A stretch of 46,559 nucleotides of DNA, taken from the UHGV virus genome UHGV-0172001; one strand, given 5' to 3'. Numbering within the stretch: the stretch's first letter is position 1; each line of letters opens with the position of its first letter. A program made the position numbers and the translations under genes. The notes under the pieces are model-generated. The model saw only the letters and a list, made by a program, of their open reading frames with translations. It was not told where the DNA came from and searched no databases. This document shows positions 13,229 to 24,976 of this stretch, in pieces. The DNA comes from a virus.

Positions 13229-13509
13229 GAAGGAAACAAAACAGAAACAACAATTGCCGTTACCTGTTGTTACCATGGCAAGTAAACGTATCTCAGGCGA
13301 GCGCATTGCGCCGTTCTGACGCAGATAAATTAGCCTGGATAGATGGTGCTGGCAATAAAAAATAGCGTTTTCTTATCGGTGTCGGTAAGATTGCTGCGGG
13401 TGCTTGAGGCTGTCTGCCTCGGGCATGCCACTGTAAGGCAGACAGAGAAAAGCCCCAGTTAACATTACGCGTCTTGCAGGACGCTTAACATTAATCTGAG
13501 GCCCAATCT

Positions 13510-13716
13510 ATGCCACACAAACATAGGTTAGCCTCTTACGGACCGAAAGGTCAAGGAGAAGCAGGCTATGAAGCAGCAAAAGGCGATGTTAATCGCCCTG
13601 ATCGTCATCTGTTTAACCGTCATAGTGACGGCACTGGTAACGAGGAAAGACCTCTGCGAGGTACGAATCCGAACCGGCCAGACGGAGGTTGCTGTCTTCG
13701 TAGACTACGAATCTGA
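13510..13716 (+). CDS. mok-like overlapping reading frame of the hok locus
   Basis: 68-aa ORF overlapping nearly all of hok in another frame, as in hok/mok/sok loci. Confidence 0.45.
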   Translation: MPHKHRLASYGPKGQGEAGYEAAKGDVNRPDRHLFNRHSDGTGNEERPLRGTNPNRPDGGCCLRRLRI

Positions 13717-13723
13717 GAAGTAA
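13568..13723 (+). CDS. Hok/Gef-family type I toxin (HokD/RelF-like)
   Basis: MKQQKAMLIALIVICLTVIVTALVTRKDLCEVRIRTGQTEVAVF is near-identical to HokD as recalled; 51 aa; structured leader with a 10-bp stem at about 13395-13430. Confidence 0.9.
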   Translation: MKQQKAMLIALIVICLTVIVTALVTRKDLCEVRIRTGQTEVAVFVDYESEK

Positions 13724-16422: not shown

Positions 16423-16797
16423 ATGCGTATAGAGTTTGTTTTGCCTTATCCGCCGACGGTGAACACCTACTGGCGTCGTCGTGGCAGCACATATTTTGTA
16501 TCAAAAGCCGGTGAGCGTTATCGCCGTGATGTGGCGCTTATTGTTCGCCAGCAGCGGCTGAAATCAAACCTGTCCGGAAGGCTGGCAATAAAAATTACTG
16601 CAGAGCCACCAGATAAGCGCCGTCGTGACCTGGACAATATTCTGAAAGCACCACTGGATGCGCTGACGCATGCGGGACTGCTTATCGATGACGAGCAGTT
16701 TGATGAAATTAATATTGTGCGCGGTCAGGTCGTTCCTGGTGGTCGGTTGGGCGTGAAGATTTACGAAATAATGCATGACGGGCAGGTCAAAAAATGA
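16423..16797 (+). CDS. rusA: Holliday junction resolvase RusA
   Basis: PDKRRRDLDNILKAPLDALTHAGLLIDDEQ parallels E. coli RusA [30 protein letters not shown]. Confidence 0.9.
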   Translation: MRIEFVLPYPPTVNTYWRRRGSTYFVSKAGERYRRDVALIVRQQRLKSNLSGRLAIKITAEPPDKRRRDLDNILKAPLDALTHAGLLIDDEQFDEINIVRGQVVPGGRLGVKIYEIMHDGQVKK

Positions 16798-17615
16798 AGC
16801 TGGAAGATTTACCGAAATACTATTCCCCGAAATCGCCAGGCCTGACTGATGCATCCGCCTCGACATCAAAAGATGCACTGAGTATCACTGATGTGATGGC
16901 TGCACAGGGCATGACACAGAACCGGGCTGAGATGGGATTTTCTGCGTTCCTGGGGAAAATGGGCATTAGTATGAACGACAGGGCGCGGGCAACAGAATTA
17001 CTGGCAGATTATGCATTAAGTCAGTGCGATCGCGTGGCGGCGTTAAGAAAACTTCCGGCAGAAATAAAACCGGCAGTGATGCGCATTATGGCTTCGTATG
17101 CTTTTGAGGATTATGCCCGCAGCGCAGCGAGTAAAAAGCAGTGCCCTTGTTGCCATGGGGAAAAATTTATTGAAAGCGAAGTTTTTACAAACAAGGTTCA
17201 GTATCCGGATGGTAAGCCGCCAGTATGGGCAAAGTGTACAAAAGGCGTGTATCCGTCTTACTGGGAAGAATGGAAAAAAATCCGGGAGGTGGTGAAAGTT
17301 TCCTGTCCTGAATGTAAAGGGAAGGGGGAGATCTCCACTGCCTGTAAAGACTGCCGTGGGCGTGGTGTTGCCATTCATCGTGAAGAGTCAGAAAAACGGG
17401 GTATGCCTGTTATCAGGGACTGCCGGCGTTGTGGCGGTCGTGGCCATGAAAGATTACCGTCAACGGAGGCATTTAATGCCATATGCAAAGTGACGAGTGC
17501 TATCACGCTTGATACATGGAAAAAATCAGTGAAACGCTTTTACGATACGTTGGTGGTTCGGTTTGACATTGAAGAGGCATGGGCAGAGCGGCAGTTAAAG
17601 AGGGTAACGCGATAG
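16794..17615 (+). CDS. Late-gene antiterminator Q (phage 82/933W-type)
   Basis: SPKSP, TDVMAAQGM, ASYAFEDYARSAA, multiple CxxC zinc knuckles, RFYDTLVV; followed by a promoter-like element and terminator. Confidence 0.85.
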   Translation: MKLEDLPKYYSPKSPGLTDASASTSKDALSITDVMAAQGMTQNRAEMGFSAFLGKMGISMNDRARATELLADYALSQCDRVAALRKLPAEIKPAVMRIMASYAFEDYARSAASKKQCPCCHGEKFIESEVFTNKVQYPDGKPPVWAKCTKGVYPSYWEEWKKIREVVKVSCPECKGKGEISTACKDCRGRGVAIHREESEKRGMPVIRDCRRCGGRGHERLPSTEAFNAICKVTSAITLDTWKKSVKRFYDTLVVRFDIEEAWAERQLKRVTR

Positions 17616-17720: not shown

Positions 17721-17880
17721 TTGTGATAGATAACAACTCCAGGTGGCATTCATTAGTGAATATTAGTTAATGTGTGCTGCCATGCGTTAAAAGATGTCAA
17801 TTCGTTATTGACCGATATCAAATTATGGAAAGATGAATATCATTACTATTGAAAATTCGTTGTTTCAATAGGTGATATTT

Positions 17881-18597
17881 ATGCATAAACTAATTAAGCT
17901 GTTTTCATTTTTTATTGCACTATCGATATCTCAGTGTTATGCCACTAGTAATGAATTCATAAGCGCCAGTAACAGTAGGGCATTTTCATTTTTTTTGCCT
18001 ACAGGGCAAGCAATGGCTATCCAGTATCTTGATGGACTTAAAAGATATTCAGCGAGCGAGATTATAGACGACTTCAATAATAATGAATTGAGAGCGAAGA
18101 AAAAGTATAAAGATGTATTCATCATAAACTCAACAGCGCGGGCGATTAAGCAAGACCTTGATGATAGGTTTTTTGTTCTGCTAAGGGATGGTAATAGTGG
18201 ATTTGAATCGTTTTATGCTTACTATGATAAGAAATCAGAAGGTGACTTAGAGTTTCTTAACGAAGGTGATAATGTGGAGTTTATTTGCTCCAATGTTAAA
18301 AACATCATTATGCCAAGAGCGGAATGTTTTTCTATCGCTTTAAATCTTGAATCTCAAAATATTCAGGGAAATCCTATAAGATTTTTTGATAATGCTTATA
18401 AGTTGCAAAACACTTATAAGGCTACAAAAATAACATTTATACTTTATTCTCTTCTGAAGGATAAAATTGAAAAGGACTGCGAAGAATCTATTGAAGCATG
18501 CAACCTAGCTGCCAGGAAGTTTACGGATAATGGCGCATTACTTGACTCCATGCTTGAACCTTATGCGGATATGTTAAGTAAAATCGGTAACAATTAA
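17881..18597 (+). CDS. AT-rich secreted protein of unknown function (moron)
   Basis: Signal-peptide-like MHKLIKLFSFFIALSISQCYA; markedly AT-rich coding sequence; own hairpin plus T run at 18610-18640; located between Q and lysis. Confidence 0.6.
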   Translation: MHKLIKLFSFFIALSISQCYATSNEFISASNSRAFSFFLPTGQAMAIQYLDGLKRYSASEIIDDFNNNELRAKKKYKDVFIINSTARAIKQDLDDRFFVLLRDGNSGFESFYAYYDKKSEGDLEFLNEGDNVEFICSNVKNIIMPRAECFSIALNLESQNIQGNPIRFFDNAYKLQNTYKATKITFILYSLLKDKIEKDCEESIEACNLAARKFTDNGALLDSMLEPYADMLSKIGNN

Positions 18598-20284: not shown

Positions 20285-20360
<76 letters not shown>

Positions 20361-20363
20361 TAT

Positions 20364-20439
<76 letters not shown>

Positions 20440-20801
20440 CATTTGAAATAAGCCTTATTGTATTGCAGCACTGGCGTATTTTTTATTACGTGGGAGCAGG
20501 TTGTTTTGAAAAAGCATTCTGTTCTCTGGCTATGATTTGAGGCCAGGTTAGCCTCAGTGCTGATTTTTCTGCGACAGCAGAATGGTGCATTGCTGGTGGA
20601 GATTTTGTATTTCCTGGCAGGGTCGGTGATGCATCATTCTGGTGTTGTAAATAACACCACCGGGGTGTTCCTCAGAGCGAGGGTGGTTAAAAGAGTCGGT
20701 TTAACGGGAAATCACAGTATTCATACAGGACGGAATACTTCGGGAGGCACCCGACACCTCGGTTTTATTACAATTAAGAATGTATTTCTTGCATTGACCA
20801 A

Positions 20802-20827
20802 CCGCCGTATCCGGCGGTTTTTTTTAT
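20802..20827 (+). terminator. Rho-independent terminator
   Basis: CCGCCG-tat-CCGGCGG plus T10. Confidence 0.7.
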
Positions 20828-20957
20828 TCAGAATCTCGTTTCTTTATGGTTCGCTGCGGCGGGCCTTTTTTATATCTGCGTTTCACTCAACGTGTATTGA
20901 ATCTGAATACATCACATAAAAGACATCGGTGGATGCCTTCGACGGGGTGTTTTATTA

Positions 20958-20981
20958 CGGGCCGCTGGCGGCCCTTTTTTA
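20958..20981 (+). terminator. Rho-independent terminator just upstream of the lysis genes
   Basis: GGGCCGC-tg-GCGGCCC plus T6. Confidence 0.7.
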
Positions 20982-20999
20982 TTTACAGGAGAAAAAAGT

Positions 21000-21392
21000 A
21001 TGTCTGAACCCTTGTCCGGTTCCGGCACGGCTGCGGCGCTCGGTGGGGCGACGGTATTCGGGCTGTTTACCGGAACGGATTTCGGGATTGTGTTTGGTGC
21101 GTTCGCCGGGGCGTTATTTGTGGCAACGATGCCGCAGGCGCTTTCAGCCTGGCGTGTGGCGGCGCATTTTCTGGTGTCGTTCATTATCGGCGTGCTGGGC
21201 GCAGAGGTTCTGGCATCCTGGCTGGTAAAGCATACAGGGTTTGACGGTGCACCTGTTGACGCACTGTGTGCAGTACTGGTGTCAGTGGTGTCGGTGAAGA
21301 TTCTGTCATTCATCCACCAGCAGGATATTGCATCACTGGTGTCCGGCCTGTTCTCCCGTCTGCGTGGCGGAGGAGGCGGCAATGTTAAGTAA
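21000..21392 (+). CDS. Putative holin (multi-TM lysis protein)
   Basis: Three to four hydrophobic helices, charged C-terminus; first gene of the lysis cluster after SD CAGGAGAAAAAAG. Confidence 0.5.
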   Translation: MSEPLSGSGTAAALGGATVFGLFTGTDFGIVFGAFAGALFVATMPQALSAWRVAAHFLVSFIIGVLGAEVLASWLVKHTGFDGAPVDALCAVLVSVVSVKILSFIHQQDIASLVSGLFSRLRGGGGGNVK

Positions 21393-21657
21393 CCTTCCCG
21401 GATTACTGAATGTGGCGTTATGCACGGTTATCGTGCTGACGCTCTTTTTTTATCGTCGCCGTGATTCCAGACATAAACCGCTGATGTCATGGCTGGCCTG
21501 GCTGCTGATGCTGCTGTATGCCTTTGCGCCCCTCAGCTATCTGTGTGGTCGCCCGTTAGCAACGGGCTGGCTGGAAGTGTTTTTTAACCTGCTGTTCTGC
21601 GTGCTGGTGATACGCGCACGCGGGAACGTCACAAAAATCTTTCCATTGTTGAGGTGA
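21382..21657 (+). CDS. Second small membrane protein of the lysis cassette (holin/antiholin-like)
   Basis: ATG 21382 after GGAGGAGGCGGC; two to three TM helices; overlaps the holin 3' end. Confidence 0.45.
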   Translation: MLSNLPGLLNVALCTVIVLTLFFYRRRDSRHKPLMSWLAWLLMLLYAFAPLSYLCGRPLATGWLEVFFNLLFCVLVIRARGNVTKIFPLLR

Positions 21658-21659
21658 AT

Positions 21660-22037
21660 ATGTCGGGTAAATTCAGATTTAGTCGTCGCAGCGAAAAGAA
21701 TCTGGAGGGCGTTAAACCACAGCTGGTTGCTGTCGTTCGCCGTGCGCTGGAGCTGACGGAGGTTGATTTCGGTATTACGGAAGGCCTGCGCAGTAAGTAT
21801 CGCCAGAAACAGCTGGTCGCGGAAGGGAAAAGCCAGACCATGAACAGCCGCCACCTGACCGGTGATGCGGTGGATGTTGTGGCCTACATTGGCAGCCAGG
21901 TGTCATGGGACTGGCCTCTGTACGAGAAAATCGCGCAGGCATTTAAGCAGGCTGCTGCAGAGCTGGGGACTGCCATCGAATGGGGCGGGGACTGGAAAAC
22001 ACTGAAAGACGGGCCTCACTTTCAGTTGAAACGCTGA
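21660..22037 (+). CDS. Endolysin, peptidase M15 family (L-alanyl-D-glutamate peptidase type)
   Basis: About 125 aa; VRRALELTEVDFGITEGLRS...SRHLTGDAVDV...GGDW pattern of small VanY/M15 phage endolysins (His/Asp zinc ligands). Confidence 0.75.
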   Translation: MSGKFRFSRRSEKNLEGVKPQLVAVVRRALELTEVDFGITEGLRSKYRQKQLVAEGKSQTMNSRHLTGDAVDVVAYIGSQVSWDWPLYEKIAQAFKQAAAELGTAIEWGGDWKTLKDGPHFQLKR

Positions 22038-22051
22038 TAACCAGGTGTGTT

Positions 22052-22249
22052 ATGAGCAGAAAACACTGGACGCACAGAATGCCGCGAACGGCGGCGAAAT
22101 GGGTACTGGTAGAGATACTGGTGCCTTTTTTATTGGTGGGATGCGTCAGCCTGGATAAAGCGCGTCAGCTTTTCGATACAGCCTCTCAGGTCTGTGAAAT
22201 TGTCGACGCTGTTAGATGCTGCGTTAAAATAAATGATCATTATCAATGA
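22052..22249 (+). CDS. Small lipoprotein, possible o-spanin-like lysis accessory
   Basis: Lipobox L-V-G-C after a hydrophobic leader (ILVPFLLVGC); immediately after the endolysin. Confidence 0.4.
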   Translation: MSRKHWTHRMPRTAAKWVLVEILVPFLLVGCVSLDKARQLFDTASQVCEIVDAVRCCVKINDHYQ

Positions 22250-22307
22250 GTTAGATTGTGCCCGGTGATAATTTCTCCATGCGTACGCAACAATTGGAGA
22301 AATACGT

Positions 22308-22514
22308 ATGAAGTACTATGTTCACACTCTTGAAGATGCTCAGAACGATCACGAAGTTCATACAGAAACTTGTTTTCGACTTCCTGACGCAAACAATCGT
22401 AAGGAGCTGGGTGAGTTTAACTCATGCGAGCCAGCTGTGAGGGCTGCAAAAAATCTGGGCTACACAAGAGCAAATGGGTGTTACTGGTGCTGTAGAGATT
22501 GCCATACATCCTGA
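22308..22514 (+). CDS. Hypothetical Cys-rich small protein
   Basis: ATG 22308 with GGAG upstream; CYWCCRDCH. Confidence 0.4.
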   Translation: MKYYVHTLEDAQNDHEVHTETCFRLPDANNRKELGEFNSCEPAVRAAKNLGYTRANGCYWCCRDCHTS

Positions 22515-22593
22515 CAGAAGATGTGAACTTAATGGTAAAGGTCGCTTCGGCGGCCTTTTTTATTGCTCAAAAAACGAAAGAACGGAGGTACGT

Positions 22594-22875
22594 ATGTACG
22601 CACTGAAAAAAATTACGGTAACTGAAGATGGTCGCCAGGTTGAGGAAGTGCATGTCCTTGGGGATATGTATCGCCTGGAGTTCTATCCGCGTGACACTCA
22701 TCTTGCTGCAAAAATTGAGTATTGCCGGGACGGGAATACTCCATGTATTCCGGTAGAAAAAGAGGATGAGGTTTACATTACCACACTGACCGGAGACACG
22801 GTGCGTTGTATCTGTCGCGGTGACAGTAAAGCCCGGGATGAAATAGCCAGATGTCGCACTCATACCAGTAAATAA
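22594..22875 (+). CDS. Hypothetical protein
   Basis: ATG 22594 after GGAGG. Confidence 0.4.
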   Translation: MYALKKITVTEDGRQVEEVHVLGDMYRLEFYPRDTHLAAKIEYCRDGNTPCIPVEKEDEVYITTLTGDTVRCICRGDSKARDEIARCRTHTSK

Positions 22876-23138
22876 AAAGTAAAGTCCCGGCTGCGCCAAT
22901 TATTTGATGCAGCTCCTCAGGCCTGTCCGCTGATTGATGGCATCCGGCAGTGTCTGCAGAACTGATCGCCTGTAAGAGCAGAATATTTCGCTGAAAAATG
23001 AAGGATGCGCCAGCGTCCGGAAAGCATGAAATTCTGCTGTGTGTGTCAATTTGTCTTATACATTCTGAATCTTGCCGAATCAGGATGAACTTTGAACAAC
23101 AGCCCGGGCGGCAAGGGGCATTTTTATCCGGAGGGGAT

Positions 23139-23363
23139 ATGAAGAGATTACTGGTAACCGTAAAGCCCTTTAACGGAACGATTCCATTCAGGGTTTTGCA
23201 GCGTGGACGTGTTCTGGTTAAGGATATCTTCAGTGGTAAATGCACGGAGTGTTATTCCCGGACATATGAAGTGGATGCCACGGATGAAGAAATTTCTGTT
23301 GAATGTGATCTGAACGCAAATATGGCGGGGATTGTAACGGCCACGTTGTTGCCTATTTCATGA
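23139..23363 (+). CDS. Hypothetical protein
   Basis: ATG 23139 after GGAGGGG. Confidence 0.4.
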   Translation: MKRLLVTVKPFNGTIPFRVLQRGRVLVKDIFSGKCTECYSRTYEVDATDEEISVECDLNANMAGIVTATLLPIS

Positions 23364-23403
23364 ATGACATAGAATGTCTCTGGGTACCCAAAAGGAGAAC
23401 ACT

Positions 23404-23619
23404 ATGTTTGTAGAAAATAACCTGAAGGCTGATCCTGATAATCAGGGATGGGTTCTGGGTTGGGCTGTAGTACGTGACAAACCCTGGCATCTGGTCGGCA
23501 TTTATGCAACGGAGGATGGCGCAAAGTCTAAACGCTCTGAATTGAATGGGGAGTATGAAGTTCGTTATGGTTCCCATCGTTTAGGTAGTGATGATTTTAT
23601 GTCTGTCGGACTTAGCTAA
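23404..23619 (+). CDS. Hypothetical protein
   Basis: ATG 23404 after AAAGGAG; followed by terminator 23641-23667. Confidence 0.4.
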   Translation: MFVENNLKADPDNQGWVLGWAVVRDKPWHLVGIYATEDGAKSKRSELNGEYEVRYGSHRLGSDDFMSVGLS

Positions 23620-23640
23620 CTGGCTGTGATGCCTGTTTGT

Positions 23641-23667
23641 AGCCCCGCAAATGCGGGGCTTTTTTAT
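23641..23667 (+). terminator. Rho-independent terminator
   Basis: AGCCCCGC-aaat-GCGGGGCT plus T6. Confidence 0.75.
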
Positions 23668-23675
23668 ATCTGGAG

Positions 23676-23978
23676 ATGATGATGGAAAAAACAGAAAACA
23701 AACCGGTTGTAATTGGTGCCGCTGCTGTTCCGTTTAAGTTTGAACTGTCACAACTGGTGGAAGTATGCATCAGTGATGAATGGGGTGAGGTTAAAGCTCG
23801 CGCTCAGTATGCGGGTGGCGAAAATCAGTACTTACTCCACTACAAAGCAGCTGATGGTCGCGCCACGACGGAGTGGTTTGGTGAGTCAATGCTGGAAGCA
23901 ACAGAAGATGATCGTCATCCTGGTTGTCCGGTATTTGCCGGTATGGAATTACCGAAAGGCGCGGTAGTTACTGAGTAA
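23676..23978 (+). CDS. Hypothetical protein
   Basis: 100-aa ORF; followed by a 14-bp perfect stem-loop at 23983-24021. Confidence 0.45.
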   Translation: MMMEKTENKPVVIGAAAVPFKFELSQLVEVCISDEWGEVKARAQYAGGENQYLLHYKAADGRATTEWFGESMLEATEDDRHPGCPVFAGMELPKGAVVTE

Positions 23979-24342
23979 CAGGCATTACAGCAGCCCTTCA
24001 CTCTAAGGGGCTGCTGTAATGTGAGAAATAAAAAACCGGCAGGGGAAATCCATTGAAGATTTGCCGGTGGCAAAAGAGGGCCATGTTTTTAACCTTAGTC
24101 GCAGAGTTACGGAGTGCAACTACGAATGCTGCCGGTATATGGCTGAATGGCGTTTCAATGATGTACGTCATCTTATCTGTAAATGTTAATGATAAACGCT
24201 CCCATTTGTGCGGGTCCTTTCCGGAATCTGAAACACCGAGGGTACGCGTACGCGCAAAAACGCGCTATTTATGAAAATTTTCAGGGAAAAAGCAGATCCG
24301 TTCTTCTTCTGGCTAACCTGTTGTTTAATATAATTTTCTTGA

Positions 24343-24410
24343 AAAAAAGAAAGGATCTGGCAGCGGTAATTTTTCGCTGAAAAAAGCATTTTGAGATCCT
24401 TTCTTCTTTT
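24343..24410. repeat. Inverted repeat immediately upstream of the terminase small subunit (candidate cos / terminase-recognition region)
   Basis: AAGAAAGGATCT (24347-24358) and AGATCCTTTCTT (24394-24405), perfect 12-bp arms, 35-bp spacer. Confidence 0.4.
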
Positions 24411-24427
24411 TGTGGGGGATATGTGAC

Positions 24428-24976
24428 GTGAAGGTTAACAAAAAGAAACTGGCGGAGATTTTTGAGTGCGATGTCAGAACAATCACTGGCTGGCAAAGTC
24501 AGGGGCTGAGAATTTTGTCGGGGGGAGGCAAAGGTATCGAGGCCATGTTCAATACTGCAGAAGCCATTGAGTGGTATGCGCAGCGGGAAAAAGATATCGA
24601 AAACGAAAAGCTCCGCAAGGAACTGGAAGATTTGCGTTCGGCTGCAGAATCAGATTTACAACCCGGCACCATTGACTATGAACGCTACCGGCTCACAAAA
24701 GCACAGGCTGACGCACAGGAGCTGAAAAATGCCCGCGAAGAAGGGCTGGTGCTGGAAACGGAATTGTTTACCTTCATTCTGCAACGTGTGGCTCAGGAGA
24801 TTTCGGGAATACTTGTACGTGTGCCGCTGACATTACAGCGTAAATATCCGGATATTTCACCGTCACACCTTGATGTGGTGAAAACTGAAATCGCAAAAGC
24901 CTCCAATGTTGCAGCTAAAGCCGGTGAAAACGTGGGCAGGTGGATTGATGATTTCAGACGCACAGAAGGCAGCTAA
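24428..24976 (+). CDS. Terminase small subunit (lambda Nu1-like)
   Basis: [12 protein letters not shown]...GGGKG...[29 protein letters not shown] parallels lambda Nu1; GTG 24428 preferred (TTG 24410 opens the ORF). Confidence 0.9.

Follow-up and report, generated by a model that had tools for sequence, protein, structure and literature searches.

How does a phage that carries no spanin breach the outer membrane of its host? This question, for which the disruptin is the only alternative worked out so far, is raised by the virus genome UHGV-0172001, a stretch of 46,559 nucleotides (the window in what follows, always at its full length), in which two small holin-family membrane proteins and an M15-family endolysin are followed by a lone lipoprotein of 65 residues, here called LP. 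The four genes probably make up the whole lysis cassette of a lambdoid prophage like phiP27. Judging from sequence and gene context, LP is probably a true component of this cassette; the reading we favour, at about even odds, is that it brings about the outer-membrane step and needs no inner-membrane partner from the phage. In Escherichia coli, the family makes a clean test case, with a lipoprotein of 60-65 residues in the spanin slot of hundreds of prophages, among them Stx2e- and Stx2k-converting phages, and it is suited to the established lambda Rz/Rz1 complementation assay. Moreover, such cassettes adjoin Shiga-toxin and LT-II genes, so that the mode of lysis bears on toxin release.

The cassette and its lipoprotein

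The first two genes (Table 1) overlap by 11 nt and encode proteins scoring above the Pfam gathering cut-offs for Phage_holin_8 (80.7 bits, cut-off 26.4) and Phage_holin_3_7 (77.9 bits, cut-off 25.4); these matches place both in families whose members permeabilise the inner membrane, and hydropathy gives neither of them a sizeable periplasmic domain. Deletion of the gene for the 130-residue holin abolished antibiotic-induced release of Stx2e, which was restored by a plasmid copy (PMC12571312, 2025), and the cloning primer used there is identical to positions 21000-21019 of the window. The PDB relatives of the endolysin comprise 8q2g (5e-43), ChiX (5opz, 8e-43) and T5 Lys (2mxz, 1.5e-23), with the L-Ala-D-Glu endopeptidases ChiX and T5 Lys as its best solved relatives. 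The motifs SRHLTGDAVD and GPHFQ are readable in its translation, and from what is known of T5 Lys we take them to be the zinc-ligand His/Asp/His motifs. Neither an export signal nor a signal-anchor-release segment was found in the 125 residues of the enzyme, which therefore needs the holin lesions to reach the murein; once the holins have permeabilised the inner membrane, the M15 peptidase would cut it.

The initial annotation had described a non-canonical cassette of two membrane proteins, an M15 endolysin of about 125 residues and a lone lipoprotein, and all four genes were recovered at these positions with profile matches or signs of selection, the endolysin at exactly 125 residues. Likewise, the membrane-segment prediction suggested at that point gave three to four and three segments for the two holins and only the signal peptide for LP. 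The lipobox LVGC had been read correctly (L28-C31), the length of the lipoprotein (66 residues) one residue too long.

LP combines a signal peptide (MSRKHWTHRMPRTAAKWVLVEILVPFLLVG), in which a long, basic and conserved n-region (MSRKHWTHRMPRTAAKW) precedes the hydrophobic core, with a short mature part (CVSLDKARQLFDTASQVCEIVDAVRCCVKINDHYQ). It is a real gene under purifying selection in its own frame: among 53 distinct DNA alleles, the ratio of nonsynonymous to synonymous polymorphism (pN/pS) is 0.18 overall, 0.13 in the mature part and 0.19 in the n-region, as against 1.2 and 2.3 in the other two frames, and the variable columns (19, 13 and 40 at codon positions 1, 2 and 3) fall mostly on the third position. 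Because the alternative frames show no constraint and variation is concentrated in third positions, a second gene hidden in another frame of LP is ruled out. Invariant in an alignment of 19 diverse members are F26, G30, C31, L34, A44, C48 and C57, and both C48 and C57 are also kept in a second subfamily (see below). The residue at +2 after the lipobox cysteine is Val, and no family member has Asp there. In E. coli, lipoproteins without Asp at +2 are directed to the outer membrane by Lol sorting, and by this rule mature LP is expected to be sorted to the outer membrane.

Past the cysteine, the mature part has 34 residues in the window, 29 in the common allele and 29-42 across the family. It contains three cysteines (C31, C48, C57) and no proline in the window, with a single proline in one of ten family members scored; it is amphipathic (hydrophobic moment, muH, ~0.5), and its net charge is -1 in the window and in common alleles and ranges from -4 to +3 across the family. 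The AlphaFold2 model, of moderate confidence and with too few features for a fold search, is one long helix (residues 12-63, pLDDT 70), along which L34, A37, F41, A44, C48 and V51 follow a heptad a/d pattern. A Tat signal in the basic n-region was rejected by eye, the E. coli subfamily having no twin arginine.

The sole PHROG match of LP, to phrog_7528 (E=5e-34, residues 1-58), leads to an entry annotated 'unknown function', and the 119 protein clusters of homologues, nearly all from E. coli and some from Salmonella and Cronobacter, are unnamed or called just 'lipoprotein'. The family is thus small and restricted to Enterobacteriaceae. A search of 1.8 billion representatives with a hidden Markov model of LP returned only 24 clusters, all from its own family; a PDB profile search gave only spurious Cys-rich matches, and hhalign against Lpp and two o-spanins aligned only the signal peptide and lipobox. 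The family is not new, a phiP27 member having been catalogued in 2018, and the literature search found it described nowhere beyond the tables of that study (Kongari et al. 2018). In RefSeq and GenBank records the LP gene is frequently unannotated. This also holds for the Actinobacillus phage vB_Apl-pPE4, a record with an odd host assignment whose cassette is ~90% identical to that of E. coli.

Search for an inner-membrane partner

Three things are new about LP: it lacks a partner, it keeps its tie to the endolysin however the cassettes are shuffled, and it and canonical spanins replace one another. A partner was sought by six-frame scans that took every ATG, GTG and TTG start and recorded hydrophobic segments and lipoboxes, both over 20900-24500 and over the whole 46.5-kb window. 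Between 20900 and 24500, the only credible membrane proteins in six frames are the two holins and LP. Across the whole window, no open reading frame (ORF) with an N-terminal membrane segment and a periplasmic domain occurs in a plausible place, nor is there a second credible lipobox ORF besides LP. Furthermore, tblastn of the window with the spanins of related cassettes, TM60, TM44 (two small membrane proteins introduced below), Bor and the phiP27 'i-spanin' yielded no match at E<0.1. The remark in the initial annotation that there is no obvious Rz is borne out by these searches.

The same data dispose of two roles that had been offered for LP at that stage. For an o-spanin with an embedded or overlapping partner, the all-frame search proposed at the time was run over 20900-24500 and found none: the alternative frames around 21600-23000 hold no membrane segment, and those over LP show no coding constraint (pN/pS >1). 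A variant of the unimolecular spanin is equally untenable, as LP ends in a polar C-terminus without a membrane segment and has a mature part of only 34 residues. An i-spanin encoded elsewhere in the prophage, as in the separated arrangement of T4, was also considered, and nothing credible was seen across the whole window.

In order to place the window among its relatives, 86 LP loci were collected (3 species genomes, 80 from IMG/VR, plus annotated records) and reference proteins were mapped onto them; counts below are over 87. In none of the 87 was an i-spanin-like ORF or a second plus-strand lipoprotein found.

The published assignment in phiP27

For phiP27 itself, a partner has been proposed. 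In the survey of Kongari et al. (2018, BMC Bioinformatics 19:326, PMC6139136), this phage is listed with a 'separated' two-component spanin, both subunits of which are family singletons and whose periplasmic parts together come to 62 residues, fewer than in any other of the 528 two-component systems. The o-spanin of that study (NC_003356 20706-20861; 51 residues, periplasmic part of 30 residues, 83% helical) is the LP homologue (85% identity, phrog_7528). The i-spanin (NC_003356 20348-20542) corresponds to a TTG-initiated ORF of 64 residues (locus L001, 5288-5482) without a PHROG match, lies antisense to a 90-residue ORF that matches phrog_36812 (5e-20), and belongs to an insert of ~490 bp that separates endolysin and LP in 2 of the 87 loci and is lacking in the window. 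Doubt falls on the two-component assignment because the ORF lacks a PHROG match, is antisense and lies on a rare insert; the 'i-spanin' is probably not a gene and the assignment probably wrong, and the present analysis corrects it accordingly. Phage type and LP family are the same in phiP27 and the window, and the two differ in that the phiP27 insert, with its reverse-strand gene, parts the endolysin from LP. The survey also reported 31 genomes with a lipoprotein but no linked i-spanin, which were treated as unresolved, and about 13% of phages of Gram-negative hosts without an identifiable spanin (PMC6139136).

The spanin slot in related phages

The position of LP is filled by recognisable spanins in more distant relatives. 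In five such phages with the same holin pair, the endolysin gene is immediately followed by either a pair of i- and o-spanin genes or an Rz-like gene: HK639 has a 91-residue i-spanin and an overlapping 75-residue o-spanin, the Klebsiella phages ST13-OXA48phi12.2 and Seifer each have an i-/o-spanin pair, Salmonella 118970_sal3 has an Rz-like gene, and mEp390 has two small genes arranged as the HK639 pair and annotated as hypothetical. Spanin genes like theirs occur in 0 of the 87 LP loci. The cassettes of HK639, mEp390 and the Klebsiella phages agree with that of the window in holin pair and gene order, whereas their endolysins differ from the M15 enzyme (a 209-residue lysozyme-type protein, or a 181-residue lysozyme-like one in Seifer), and in place of the lone LP of the window they have a canonical spanin pair, overlapped or separated.

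Only one phage was found to hold both a canonical S-R-Rz/Rz1 cassette and an LP-like sequence, namely the Stx phage GER2, whose LP copy (locus L091, 2488-2680) lies 3' of S-R-Rz/Rz1 and is an unannotated pseudogene with an in-frame TAG and a frameshift. The remnant seen in GER2 may also account for the 35 E. coli records in which identity to LP is no more than 60-80%.

Linkage of LP to the endolysin

The four genes of the cassette overlap or are at most 14 nt apart, and no promoter-like or terminator-like site was detected between endolysin gene and LP in the window. In every locus that reaches an endolysin (82 of 82), LP lies 3' of it, and all loci with enough 5' sequence show the order holin, holin, endolysin, LP. 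Including further related loci, LP follows the endolysin in about 95, mostly at a distance of no more than 15 nt, with two holin systems and three endolysin types. Among the 54 loci of the M15 type, to which the window belongs, 39 have the LP start 14-15 nt past the endolysin stop. In 28 loci, the M15 gene is replaced by a GH108 lysozyme and LP is kept 3' of it; 27 of these 28 carry 334-1067 bp of inserted small genes (TM60, TM44, C68, Y93 or a reverse-strand Bor). The PF16931 plus PF05449 holin pair thus occurs together with LP and either an M15 or a GH108 endolysin.

A full profile search brought up the second LP subfamily (LVGCVSLEKARNWFGVAADVCDTVKKIKDRCNDRK) in independent gene contexts, that is, with a lambda-S-family holin (PF05106) and an M15, GH108 or CHAP-domain endolysin, or with a divergent Phage_holin_8/Phage_holin_3_7 pair and M15. 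In all these lambda-S-type and divergent-pair cassettes (L006, L093-L097, L099), LP overlaps the endolysin gene or starts at most 10 nt past its stop. Altogether, at least six cassettes shuffled in different ways keep LP immediately after the endolysin, and the packaging modules 3' of the LP loci vary as well, with at least three terminase types. One and the same LP subfamily is combined with unrelated holins and endolysins, which speaks for a lysis step of its own and against a dedicated partner among the holins or endolysins. In separate searches of complete E. coli genomes, the holin pair was present in 369 and an LP-like sequence in 352, the latter count including some remnants.

Several small genes accompany LP in these relatives. 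TM60, a tail-anchored membrane protein of 57-60 residues (phrog_1115), is encoded 1-5 nt 5' of LP in about 35 related loci (for example, L003 3502-3836 and L092 2326-2499), often together with the 44-residue membrane protein TM44 (phrog_4906); the window has neither. L068 (3481-3822, minus) and seven other loci carry a reverse-strand gene for a Bor/Iss-like lipoprotein between their GH108 endolysin and TM60-LP, which is where bor classically lies relative to the lambda lysis cassette.

Prophage setting and neighbouring genes

The window is a phiP27-like lambdoid prophage closely related to the Stx2e phage phiP27, which matches region 20900-22600 with 94% DNA identity across 76% of its length; no stx genes were found in the window. 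The cassette is preceded by genes for RusA, the Q antiterminator, a low-GC secreted protein and a DNA methylase, by two tRNAs and by three terminator-like hairpins (Table 1). Hairpins between the Q gene and the first holin gene are what one would expect where a late promoter precedes late genes under Q control, and HK639 has four annotated terminators at the equivalent position. Transcription of the cassette would come from the Q-dependent late operon.

Table 1. Features of the window discussed in the text, the lysis cassette first (positions in the 46,559-nt stretch).
Feature	Position	Strand	Evidence or remark
Phage_holin_8 protein, 130 aa, 3-4 hydrophobic segments	21000-21392	+	PF16931 E=1.2e-22; phrog_198 holin 8e-43; hydropathy
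Phage_holin_3_7 protein, 91 aa, 3 hydrophobic segments	21382-21657	+	PF05449 E=6e-22; phrog_217 holin 1.5e-38; hydropathy
M15C L-alanyl-D-glutamate endopeptidase endolysin, soluble, 125 aa	21660-22037	+	PF13539 Peptidase_M15_4 E=1.5e-12; phrog_465 endolysin 5.6e-75
Lipoprotein LP, 65 aa, phrog_7528	22052-22249	+	start codon 14 nt past endolysin stop, AGGTG upstream
LP signal peptide, residues 1-30	22052-22141	+	alignment of 19 members; n-region pN/pS 0.19; PS51257 pattern test
LP lipobox L28-V29-G30-C31	22133-22144	+	G30 and C31 invariant in family
Mature LP, 35 residues including the lipidated Cys (34 past C31)	22142-22246	+	predicted helical, amphipathic
LP codon 21 (GAG, Glu)	22112-22114		Ala (GCG/GCA) in nearly all relatives
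Q-type late antiterminator	16794-17615	+	PF03589 Antiterm, E=1.7e-49
Three strong terminator-like hairpins (20800-20974), just 5' of first holin gene	20800-20819, 20848-20865, 20959-20974	+	hairpin search
C68, Cys-rich ORF of 68 aa	22308-22514		phrog_4298; next gene after LP
Promoter-like site of C68	22203-22230		inside LP 3' end
Strong terminator of C68	22537-22558		
hok/sok toxin-antitoxin module, complete	13398-13723		sok RNA Rfam RF01794, 109 bits; Hok ORF 51 aa, PF01848 4e-23
Low-GC island	17872-18597		GC 0.30-0.36 (flanks ~0.5); product of 241 aa with signal peptide
tRNA-Thr(TGT) and tRNA-Gly(TCC)	20285-20438		between methylase gene and late terminators

The gene after LP, C68, has its own promoter-like site and terminator, and its position differs or the gene is missing in relatives; it behaves as an independent moron. 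At the site of the two tRNAs, phiP27 has tRNAs followed by stx2e, and other relatives have LT-II or pertussis-like toxin genes; no toxin gene is present there in the window. The low-GC island between Q and methylase encodes a protein with a weak tRNA_anti-like/OB match, and its gene looks like a moron. The hok/sok module lies in the early prophage region.

A proposed outer-membrane step

On the reading that LP carries out the outer-membrane step, it would be synthesised alongside the endolysin, receive its lipid at C31 and end up in the inner leaflet of the outer membrane, from which it would display an amphipathic, cysteine-containing helix of ~30 residues and act from that side after the loss of murein. 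Several routes are conceivable. The tethered helix may perturb the outer membrane directly, LP may contact the ballooning inner membrane, or it may recruit or activate a host factor, much as OmpLA is activated by colicin release proteins. Alternatively, an uncleaved pro-form in the inner membrane may pair with the mature form, which is suggested because of the long conserved n-region and the heptad a/d pattern.

A number of points weigh against this proposal. No tethered helix of 30-35 residues is known to disrupt the outer membrane, and LP, whose net charge is about -1, is also unlike the cationic disruptins. No sequence similarity was found between LP and the spanin, colicin lysis protein or entericidin families: Pfam, which contains models of Rz1 and Rz, returned nothing at E<=0.1, including no colicin lysis protein, NCBIfam and PADLOC searches gave no match, and hhalign with the o-spanins of related cassettes showed similarity at the lipobox only. 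The synteny could partly reflect tight physical linkage, and the 87 loci, having been gathered by similarity to LP, cannot give a rate of its absence. Some copies are damaged, by a frameshift in L002 (3329-3525) and by loss of the lipobox cysteine in L080 (C31G), and in Rac-SA53 and SerU-LTIIb, which have the same holins, LT-II genes follow the endolysin and neither LP nor a spanin is present. Because LP is missing or damaged in these cases, it is dispensable for prophage maintenance. Finally, the allele of the window has Glu in place of Ala at position 21, within the hydrophobic core of the signal peptide, as does the near-identical locus L007; with this residue at position -10 it fails the core pattern of PROSITE PS51257, which the common allele passes, and A21E might impair export or lipidation in this prophage. 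An altered lipobox (LLGGC) was also seen in L083.

Alternative explanations

The main rival, which we consider unlikely, holds that LP is an accessory ('moron') lipoprotein of the late operon without a role in lysis, serving instead in superinfection exclusion, in receptor masking like T5 Llp and phi80 Cor, or in lysogenic conversion like lambda Bor. Small prophage lipoproteins often have such roles, the interval between lysis and terminase genes is a hot spot in which C68, Y93, TM60, TM44, Bor and toxin genes come and go, and LP is missing or broken in some prophages. However, LP has neither a promoter nor a terminator of its own, whereas its neighbour C68 has both, and it holds its place right after the endolysin with two holin systems and three types of endolysin, even as the packaging and morphogenesis modules 3' of it change. 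The exclusion lipoproteins Cor and Llp are linked to tail and receptor-binding genes instead, PADLOC has no match for LP, and its slot is filled by spanins in relatives. That the lipoprotein might be unrelated to lysis, as had also been entertained at the outset, is improbable on the same grounds, given its place behind the endolysin in at least six shuffled cassettes and in the spanin slot of relatives.

Ranked after this, and given less weight still, is the explanation that LP is a genuine o-spanin with a non-canonical partner, be it a holin-family protein, TM60, a host inner-membrane protein or its own uncleaved pro-form. The outer-membrane lipoprotein signal, small size, periplasmic cysteines and position after the endolysin would all fit, and the phiP27 homologue was classed as an o-spanin (Kongari 2018, PMC6139136). 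A TM60 gene directly 5' of LP (1-5 nt) in about 35 loci could point to one such partner, but neither the window nor most loci of the M15 type have one, and the charge distribution of TM60 predicts a cytoplasmic N-terminus and hence no periplasmic domain. Similarly, a specific holin partner is at odds with the occurrence of the same LP subfamily beside unrelated holin systems, and neither holin has a sizeable periplasmic domain. Pairing with the pro-form would agree with the unusually long n-region, its protein-level conservation (pN/pS 0.19) and the a/d pattern of the helix (L34, A37, F41, A44, C48, V51), yet two helices of ~30 residues cannot bridge an intact periplasm.

It is quite improbable that LP is a regulator of lysis, tuning its timing or protecting the envelope until the holin triggers, and not a disruptor of the outer membrane. 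There are additional small lysis factors that intervene at the holin step, such as Lcc6 of the Shewanella phage LambdaSo, and LP is linked to lysis genes, but an outer-membrane lipoprotein is badly placed to regulate a holin in the inner membrane, the same LP subfamily serves unrelated holins and endolysins, and the cassette would then have no outer-membrane component. Least probable by far is a functionless, decaying remnant of an ancestral Rz1 after loss of Rz, which would agree with the spanin slot and the broken copies and is disfavoured by strong purifying selection, by the lipobox and cysteines that are invariant across genera, by the lack of resemblance to relatives' o-spanins beyond the lipobox and by the retention of LP through many recombination events.

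Comparison with known outer-membrane lysis systems

Of the known systems, LP is most like an o-spanin of the lambda Rz/Rz1 type in position and anchoring, sharing the outer-membrane lipoprotein signal, the short mature part, the cysteines in the periplasm and the gene position right after the endolysin in the late operon; yet two defining features, a cognate i-spanin and a length sufficient to bridge the periplasm, are lacking. Lambda Rz1 is proline-rich and unstructured, whereas the mature part of LP is helical and without proline. Compared with two-component spanins in general, LP has no i-spanin gene, a periplasmic length that is far too short and no sequence similarity. Because it has no phage-encoded partner and is too short for the periplasm, LP cannot be a classical spanin. 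With the unimolecular spanins of the T1 gp11 type it shares the single gene, the N-terminal lipoprotein signal and the location in a lysis cassette, whereas these proteins have a long, mostly beta periplasmic domain and a C-terminal membrane segment, and the 30-35 helical residues of LP provide neither.

Two further systems do without a dedicated inner-membrane subunit. Colicin lysis proteins and entericidin B are tiny lipoproteins (~28-35 residues once mature) whose damage to the envelope requires no such subunit; their likeness to LP is one of function, with no sequence similarity, and LP belongs to a phage late operon and not to a colicin operon. The disruptin (phiKT gp28; Holt et al., bioRxiv 10.1101/515445) is a cationic amphipathic helical peptide without a lipid anchor that accomplishes a spanin-independent outer-membrane step in a coliphage. 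Both LP and the disruptin are short amphipathic helices, LP differing in its lipid anchor and, in the E. coli subfamily, its charge of about -1. Beside spanins and cationic disruptins, LP may be put forward, tentatively, as a possible third class of phage outer-membrane lysis factor: a lipid-anchored amphipathic helix of ~30 residues with a conserved cysteine pair, which would work with any holin and endolysin and without a phage inner-membrane subunit, or, as a variant, a 'one-gene two-component spanin' composed of its own pro-form and mature form.

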